Shown here piece after piece: positions 16,176 through 16,519 of a DNA stretch of 16,776 nucleotides. Numbering within the stretch: position 1 is the first letter of the stretch; each line of letters begins with the position of its first letter. The stretch is from assembly GCF_003334765.1 (NCBI RefSeq), contig NZ_QOWT01000053.1. The stretch is one strand, 5' to 3'. The notes below the pieces were generated by a model. That model saw only the letters and a program-made list of their open reading frames with translations. It was not told where the DNA came from and did no database searches. This DNA is from Escherichia coli (GTDB taxonomy: Bacteria > Pseudomonadota > Gammaproteobacteria > Enterobacterales > Enterobacteriaceae). A program made the position numbers and the translations under genes.

Positions 16176-16519
16176 ATTGCCACTCTTCTTGACCAAATAA
16201 CCGCGAACAGGGTGATCACTGTCAACTTATTACGCGGTGAGAATTTACAAATTCTTAACGTAAGTCGCAGAAAAAGCCCTTTACTTAGCTTAAAAAAGGC
16301 TAAACTATTTCCTGACTGTACTAACGGTTTAATTGTTAAAAAATGCTACATATCCTTCTGTTTACTTAGGATAATTTTATAAAAAATAAATCTCGACAAT
16401 TGGATTCACCACGTTTATTAGTTGTATGATGCAACTAGTTGGATTATTAAAATAATGTGACGAAAGCTAGCATTTAGATACGATGATTTCATCAAACTGT
16501 TAACGTGCTACAATTGAAC

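Follow-up and report, generated by a model that had tools for sequence, protein, structure and literature searches.

The DNA analysed here (the window) is a 16,776-nt stretch of an Escherichia coli chromosome, contig NZ_QOWT01000053.1, read in reverse orientation. In it thrA and the thr leader are followed by lasT (yjtD) and by the intergenic spacer that in most E. coli separates lasT from arcA, the gene for a global respiratory regulator. This spacer measures 635 bp up to the arcA ATG in most E. coli, carries the small antisense ORF yjjY, and was found by megablast in 5,426 of 5,426 complete E. coli genomes. Window positions convert to K-12 coordinates as 4640942 + 16175 - window position (U00096.3) or 4638965 + 16175 - window position (U00096.2), which places the interval of interest, 16380-16450, at -205 to -275 relative to the lasT ATG; relative to the arcA ATG it lies at -431 to -361 in strains free of IS30. 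The spacer holding the interval is 26-30% G+C. The features referred to below are as follows.

12667-15171, minus strand: thrA
15155-15274: thr leader (Rfam match, Thr_leader)
15489-16175, minus strand: lasT (yjtD) coding sequence, with its ATG at 16175
16219-16261, minus strand: ArcA-P site of three direct repeats upstream of lasT (PMC3798270, Tables S1 and S4)
16360-16388: GadE ChIP-exo footprint, with RpoS involved (peak P16, PMC4918353, Supplementary Table 1)
16371-16399, minus strand: predicted sigma-70 "constitutive" lasT/yjtD promoter, TTGTCG-17-AATTAT (PMC3946193)
16400-16406: TTGGATT, copy 1, extending to the conserved block TTGGATTCA (16400-16408) and adjoining the -35 hexamer of the predicted lasT promoter
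16414-16423: conserved block TTTATTAGTT, overlapping the left inverted-repeat arm (mean identity over 29 genus representatives, 0.82)
16419-16437: inverted repeat TAGTTG-N7-CAACTA, in Escherichia and Salmonella only
16431-16437: conserved block GCAACTA (mean identity 0.83; background 0.59)
16432-16441: perfect 10-bp palindrome CAACTAGTTG, formed where the right arm of the inverted repeat joins the start of TTGGATT copy 2
16439-16445: TTGGATT, copy 2, conserved in its first three bases only (TTG, part of the palindrome)
16463-16474 and 16477-16485: two further conserved blocks, downstream of the interval
16486-16699, plus strand: first part of the ultra-conserved arcA upstream block, including most of the antisense yjjY ORF, cut by IS30
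16520-16533, plus strand: FNR box TTGATATATGTCAA, its centre at -284 from the arcA ATG, invariant in 78 species
16700-16776, plus strand: IS30 left end, co-oriented with arcA, with left inverted repeat TGTAGATTCAATTGG

An earlier note on this DNA had singled out the inverted repeat and the two copies of TTGGATT as possible binding sites for a nucleoid protein or regulator of the lasT and arcA promoters. Its description of the sequence was accurate: TAGTTG-N7-CAACTA lies at 16419-16437, the TTGGATT copies lie at 16400-16406 and 16439-16445, 39 bp apart from start to start, and the surrounding DNA is indeed AT-rich, with 28% G+C over 16380-16450 and 26-28% in an 80-bp profile. The position upstream of both genes holds for most E. 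coli, but in this strain IS30 at 16700 puts arcA about 1.2 kb further away.

The expected frequency of such repeats was evaluated by shuffling the 71-bp interval 2000 times with dinucleotides preserved. Of the shuffled sequences, 25% held a perfect 6-bp inverted repeat with a spacer of 0-10 nt and 11% a 7-mer direct repeat within 60 bp; shuffles of the whole 379-bp spacer held at least one of each repeat type in 75-79% of cases. Both the inverted repeat and the TTGGATT direct repeat are thus at chance level (P about 0.25 and 0.11), and a repeat search around the interval returned 29 inverted pairs of at least 6 nt in 597 bp. The inverted-repeat stem has two G-C pairs of six and lacks a T run, so that it is no terminator; a terminator of yjjY was also considered and rejected, with no terminator-like site on either strand of 16100-16776. 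Small ORFs in the interval were likewise rejected, the only ones being TTG-start frames of 22 and 25 amino acids in variable sequence, none of them credible.

Phylogenetic footprinting was based on a LasT protein scan with one genome per species, which gave 80 loci ranging from Escherichia to Buttiauxella, Cedecea and Kosakonia. In 77 of the 80, arcA adjoins lasT, and the spacer is 624-647 bp long in 75 of these 77; the aligned set comprised the 77 arcA-lasT spacers plus that of E. coli, or 78 sequences from Enterobacteriaceae species. The remaining two, Citrobacter sp. JGM124 and an Enterobacteriaceae MAG, have spacers of 485 and 502 bp (130-150 bp less), from which the lasT-proximal part including the ArcA box is gone (window-equivalent approximately 16187-16322) and in which the arcA-proximal conserved block is kept. 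That the repeats should be conserved in related species was the test by which the earlier note would stand or fall, and on this point the alignment is against it, with the full 6/6 inverted repeat in 7 of the 78 species (Escherichia and Salmonella) and TTGGATT copy 2 in 12. An operator of two half-sites fails on the arms themselves, the left arm TAGTTG being retained in 8 of 78 species and the right arm CAACTA in 54; the left arm drifts to TAGTTA, TAATTA, CAGTTA or TAATCA with the spacer length kept and the right arm showing no compensating change. A direct-repeat binding site fails as well, since the 39-bp spacing of TTGGATT is no multiple of 10.5 and the copies are not conserved together: copy 1 is retained in 51 of 78 species, copy 2 varies (TTGGAAT, TTGTAAT, TTGGTTT, TTGAGTT), and the two are identical in 9.

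The interval as a whole evolves almost neutrally, its mean conservation being 0.58 against a local background of 0.59; in the 28 other genus representatives its mean identity to E. coli is 0.56, against 0.57 for the whole lasT-proximal spacer. For comparison, identity to E. coli at third codon positions is 0.47 in lasT and 0.66 in arcA (28 other genus representatives). Short conserved blocks nevertheless stand out. A block search of the variable half of the spacer in 29 genus representatives, with expectation taken from column shuffles, recovered six blocks where 1.5 were expected (P 0.002). Two of them (16228-16248) coincide with the published ArcA site and serve as a positive control that validates the footprinting approach; the ArcA-P site is in fact the strongest footprint in this half of the spacer. 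TTGGATTCA falls just under the block threshold, and the widely kept blocks of the interval are TTGGATTCA, TTTATTAGTT and GCAACTAGTTG, the last of which includes the palindrome CAACTAGTTG. This palindrome, whose centre is CTAG, is intact in 40 of 78 species and is the best-conserved element of the interval. Because conserved blocks are present while the repeat relationships are lost across species, it is single elements that are constrained, not the symmetry or the duplication of the repeats.

The 16.8-kb window holds 6 CTAG tetranucleotides where 13 would be expected. Two of them occur here at a distance of 32 bp, and a conserved palindromic block is centred on each (CAACTAGTTG at 16432-16441 and GCTAGC at 16466-16471). 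Block AAAGCTAGCATT has a conservation of 0.85. With TTGGATTCA, TTTATTAGTT and GCAACTAGTTG, it marks the bases worth mutating.

Proteins that bind in this spacer have been mapped in published work. Genomic SELEX listed the yjjY-yjtD spacer as an RNA polymerase holoenzyme site with the promoter TTGTCG-17-AATTAT and with an H-NS flag that applies per spacer and not per base (PMC3946193, Table 3); the map position and left-gene label of that row are inconsistent, and the promoter sequence still identifies the spacer unambiguously. It has a single exact match in the window, agrees with the promoter hexamers at 8 of 12 positions, and runs from 16399 to 16371, so that its -35 hexamer abuts TTGGATT copy 1. 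If lasT transcription starts near 16364, the repeats lie at about -36 to -81 and the interval at about -30 to -86; the "Distance to TSS" field for the lasT start is empty in PMC4918353 Table S1. A simple promoter scan gave nothing at 9 or more of 12 positions, and no clearly conserved sigma-70 promoter emerged in the interval when promoters were scanned heuristically for positional conservation. A promoter-like match occurs at the place of TTGTCG-17-AATTAT in 23% of the 78 species, the hexamers are not conserved across genera, and columns 16386-16397 have an identity of approximately 0.45. Alternatively, lasT may be transcribed mainly from a proximal promoter whose TTGACA overlaps the ArcA box.

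The GadE ChIP-exo peak P16 (4638752-4638780 in U00096.2 coordinates) is weak, with a signal-to-noise ratio of 2.49 (PMC4918353), and its footprint covers just the first 9 bases of 16380-16450. It contains the TTAGGA core of a GAD box at 16366-16371; a full GAD box (TTARGAWWWWAAATA or the 20-bp form) was looked for and rejected, with no match within 3 mismatches and only the core present. Also under this GadE/RpoS footprint lies TTTACTTAGGATAA (16361-16374), whose TGTTTAC part is strongly conserved and which forms a direct repeat with TTTACTTAGCTTAA at 16280-16293, 81 bp away. A FlhDC SELEX peak near yjtD was set aside for its low signal and uncertain coordinate system. None of the accessible published footprints with which the repeats were compared falls on the repeats themselves. 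What survives of the proposal made in the earlier note is that the spacer binds such proteins and influences both genes; the repeats as their sites are unsupported.

For arcA itself, the work of Compan & Touati (1994), in the part summarised in PMC5748706, describes a control region of 530 bp with five promoters and an FNR box at -284. The only TTGAT-N4-ATCAA match in the window is the box at 16520-16533, and an FNR site in the interval was rejected. An ArcA autoregulatory box in the interval was rejected too, the published box lying about 140 bp away at 16219-16261. The ArcA ChIP-seq peak is centred at window position 16288-95, approximately (PMC3798270), and this strain carries a SNP in the ArcA-P site at 16240, A in place of the C of K-12 and strain Ec1117.

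Mutations selected during evolution of E. coli also fall in this spacer, where insertions are among the strongest recurrent adaptive mutations in mouse-gut colonisation or laboratory evolution. Four spacer alleles arose in the mouse gut, namely IS1 at 16335, IS5 at 16366-69, a TTAT duplication at 16452-56 and IS5 at 16467, and were taken by the authors as adaptive arcA-regulatory mutations; anaerobic arcA transcription was higher in a representative evolved clone, and the selection coefficient of an IS5 allele was approximately 0.09 (PMC5094792). These alleles bracket 16380-16450, and none of the four falls on the repeats. Two adaptive mutations strike conserved blocks: one affects the TTAGGA core that the GadE footprint covers, the other the GCTAGC palindrome. 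Laboratory evolution and TraDIS select insertions in or beside yjjY, preferentially in the arcA sense (PMC12956098), and an IS186 from laboratory evolution maps at window position 16554-16560, approximately.

Downstream of the interval the character of the spacer changes, identity to E. coli in genus representatives being 0.94-0.97 from 16486 to the arcA ATG as against 0.57 from the lasT ATG to 16485. In 28 genus representatives the ultra-conserved block extends for about 325 bp, including yjjY, to window-equivalent 16810. At 94-97%, it compares with 98% for codon positions 1 and 2 of arcA and 66% for third positions, more constraint at the nucleotide level than a small ORF or a handful of promoters would call for, and it matches no Rfam family. 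In the present strain this block is interrupted, and the match to ordinary E. coli genomes ends at 16700. Strain 55989 has the same arrangement: IS30 sits in yjjY after approximately codon 5, with 111 bp left to the arcA ATG, has duplicated 2 bp of target (AT), and carries its transposase in the arcA sense. The identical junction was found in 11 of the 5,426 complete E. coli genomes, among them K-12-type laboratory strains (HST04 and TUM1509) and unrelated isolates; 55989 and an O15:H12 isolate also carry it. The flanks of these genomes differ by 0.3-0.7%, which suggests that IS30 either inserted repeatedly at a hot spot or was passed on by recombination. The element severs arcA from the FNR box and the upstream promoters, and its right end carries an outward TTGACA that could give rise to a hybrid promoter facing arcA, TTGACA-19-TACTTT. 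Since IS30 lies in between, the interval could affect arcA in this strain only across 1.2 kb of IS30 or by read-through transcription.

The interval is ordinary regulatory DNA, and the repeats as such are no feature of it, neither as a repeat-based operator nor as a hairpin. The account that we favour, with some though not strong confidence, is that they are chance repeats in the AT-rich upstream flank of a lasT promoter, within a protein-bound spacer that also modulates arcA. They would arise as chance self-similarities of A+T-rich DNA, and 16380-16450 would be the upstream flank of a distal sigma-70/sigma-S lasT promoter (16399 to 16371, minus strand) and would at the same time lie far upstream within the 530-bp arcA control region. 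In vitro the spacer binds RNA polymerase and, going by its SELEX flag, H-NS; next to the interval the ChIP-exo footprint shows GadE and RpoS in vivo. The conserved blocks TTGGATTCA, TTTATTAGTT and GCAACTAGTTG are probably protein contacts; this we infer, as we do the promoter that they serve. The candidate partners are the polymerase alpha subunit (in the manner of an UP element), H-NS or another factor, and such contacts may tune lasT transcription and, at a distance, that of arcA.

Other readings were weighed against this account. The palindrome CAACTAGTTG looks more like the site of a dimeric regulator than like an UP element, which counts against the favoured explanation, and it is conceivable, if unlikely, that it is a candidate operator of such a regulator, perhaps together with GCTAGC, controlling lasT or a distal arcA promoter, of which GTGACG-16-TACGAT (16457-16484, plus strand) is an example. 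The inverted repeat and TTGGATT copy 2 would then be by-products of the palindrome. The persistence of CAACTAGTTG in about half of the species and of GCAACTA as a footprint block speaks for this, as do the conservation of AAAGCTAGCATT, the concentration here of two of the six CTAG sites of the window, where that tetranucleotide is rare, the adaptive alleles at 16452-56 (TTAT duplication) and at the CTAG at 16467 (IS5), and a plus-strand promoter-like match at the place of GTGACG-16-TACGAT in 51% of species. A 10-bp palindrome with no more than one mismatch is, however, expected 0.4 times per window by chance, and CAACTAGTTG is lost or altered in the other half of the species. IS5 prefers YTAR targets such as CTAG, so that the insertion at 16467 need not mark a functional element. 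More specifically, CAACTAGTTG and GCTAGC (32 bp apart, or three helical turns) together with TTGGATTCA might form a candidate operator that restrains the distal arcA promoter, a proposal that we regard as quite improbable; if true, the gut-adaptive TTAT duplication (16452-55) and the IS5 at 16467 would be mutations that disable it. It is distinctly unlikely, in our estimate, that the interval is mainly a zone where H-NS or another nucleoid protein nucleates and spreads, damping the arcA and lasT promoters, with the repeats mattering only as A+T-rich flexible DNA and the IS and 4-bp insertions relieving silencing. This reading, which overlaps the favoured explanation, is consistent with the low G+C content, with the SELEX H-NS flag on the spacer, and with adaptive insertions at four places over 130 bp, which fit an extended structure better than the loss of a single site. 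The sequence TCGACAATTG at 16393-16402 matches, as judged by eye, 7 of 10 positions of what we take to be the high-affinity H-NS motif, TCGATAAATT. Against this, arcA, a highly expressed core gene, is atypical as an H-NS target, the spacer has a length of only about 200 bp, and binding by composition leaves short, specific conserved blocks unexplained.

Two further readings have still less in their favour. That the inverted repeat is an RNA hairpin, in a long arcA leader made from a far-upstream promoter or in antisense yjjY-lasT read-through, where it would affect stability or processing, is very improbable. The 37-nt plus-strand core folds with -8.7 kcal/mol (z -2.5), and a double-stranded-RNA cluster spanning window positions 16349-16770 implies transcription of both strands (PMC7373196), but in an 81-nt context z rises to -0.8 (plus strand) or +0.1 (minus strand). 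In a 23-genus alignment there was no covariation for the TAGTTG-CAACTA stem or for a longer stem predicted from RNA folding, both being paired in 63-67% of cells as against 62-65% in shuffles with the covariation score inside the shuffled range; the right arm stays fixed while the left one drifts, and Rfam has no family in this region here or in the intact E. coli region. Hardly credible at all is a PdhR-type (GntR family) box in AATTGGATTCACCACGT (16398-16414) that would link pyruvate sensing to lasT or arcA. PdhR controls respiratory genes, and 11 of the 14 specified positions match the consensus, presumably AATTGGT-N3-ACCAATT. A match with three mismatches is nonetheless at chance level, 0.95 being expected per window and a second one lying at 8759; Salmonella, Citrobacter and Enterobacter do not keep the right half, ACCA, and the literature searched gave no link between PdhR and yjtD or yjjY.

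The repeats as such add nothing to a control region already mapped in outline, and the value of the analysis lies in placing conserved blocks, published protein sites and adaptive mutations on one base-level coordinate map. Among known systems, the chance repeats and conserved blocks of the interval, in the account favoured above, may be compared with the UP element or activator region of a sigma-70 or sigma-S promoter in an H-NS-bound, A+T-rich spacer, which they resemble in position (about -36 to -86), in G+C content (26-28%), in the H-NS and RNA polymerase SELEX signals of the spacer and in the adjacent RpoS/GadE ChIP-exo footprint. They differ in that the interval poorly matches the UP-element consensus, the core hexamers of the lasT promoter are not conserved across genera, and the conserved blocks include a CTAG palindrome, which is atypical of UP elements. 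Set beside the CTAG-containing operators of dimeric repressors, that palindrome shares the central ACTAGT of the TrpR type, with what we take to be the half-site GNACT/AGTNC. Many genera keep CAACTAGTTG, but its outer G/C are swapped and it is a single palindrome rather than a tandem, and we know of no TrpR link to arcA or lasT. The ArcA-P direct-repeat box shares with TTGGATT the use of direct repeats and a place in the same, ArcA-bound spacer, but has three repeats at 11-bp (and 22-bp) spacing, some 140 bp off, and TTGGATT at 39 bp is unlike its TGTTA repeat. As for the 530-bp arcA control region, the interval at -431 to -361 falls inside it in IS30-free E. coli, and adjoining insertions have been reported as adaptive arcA-regulatory mutations; the near-neutral interval lies upstream, however, of both the FNR box and the ultra-conserved part, which begins at 16486, and in this strain IS30 stands between the interval and arcA. 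This IS30 in yjjY in turn parallels the sense-oriented yjjY insertions that have been selected experimentally (PMC12956098).
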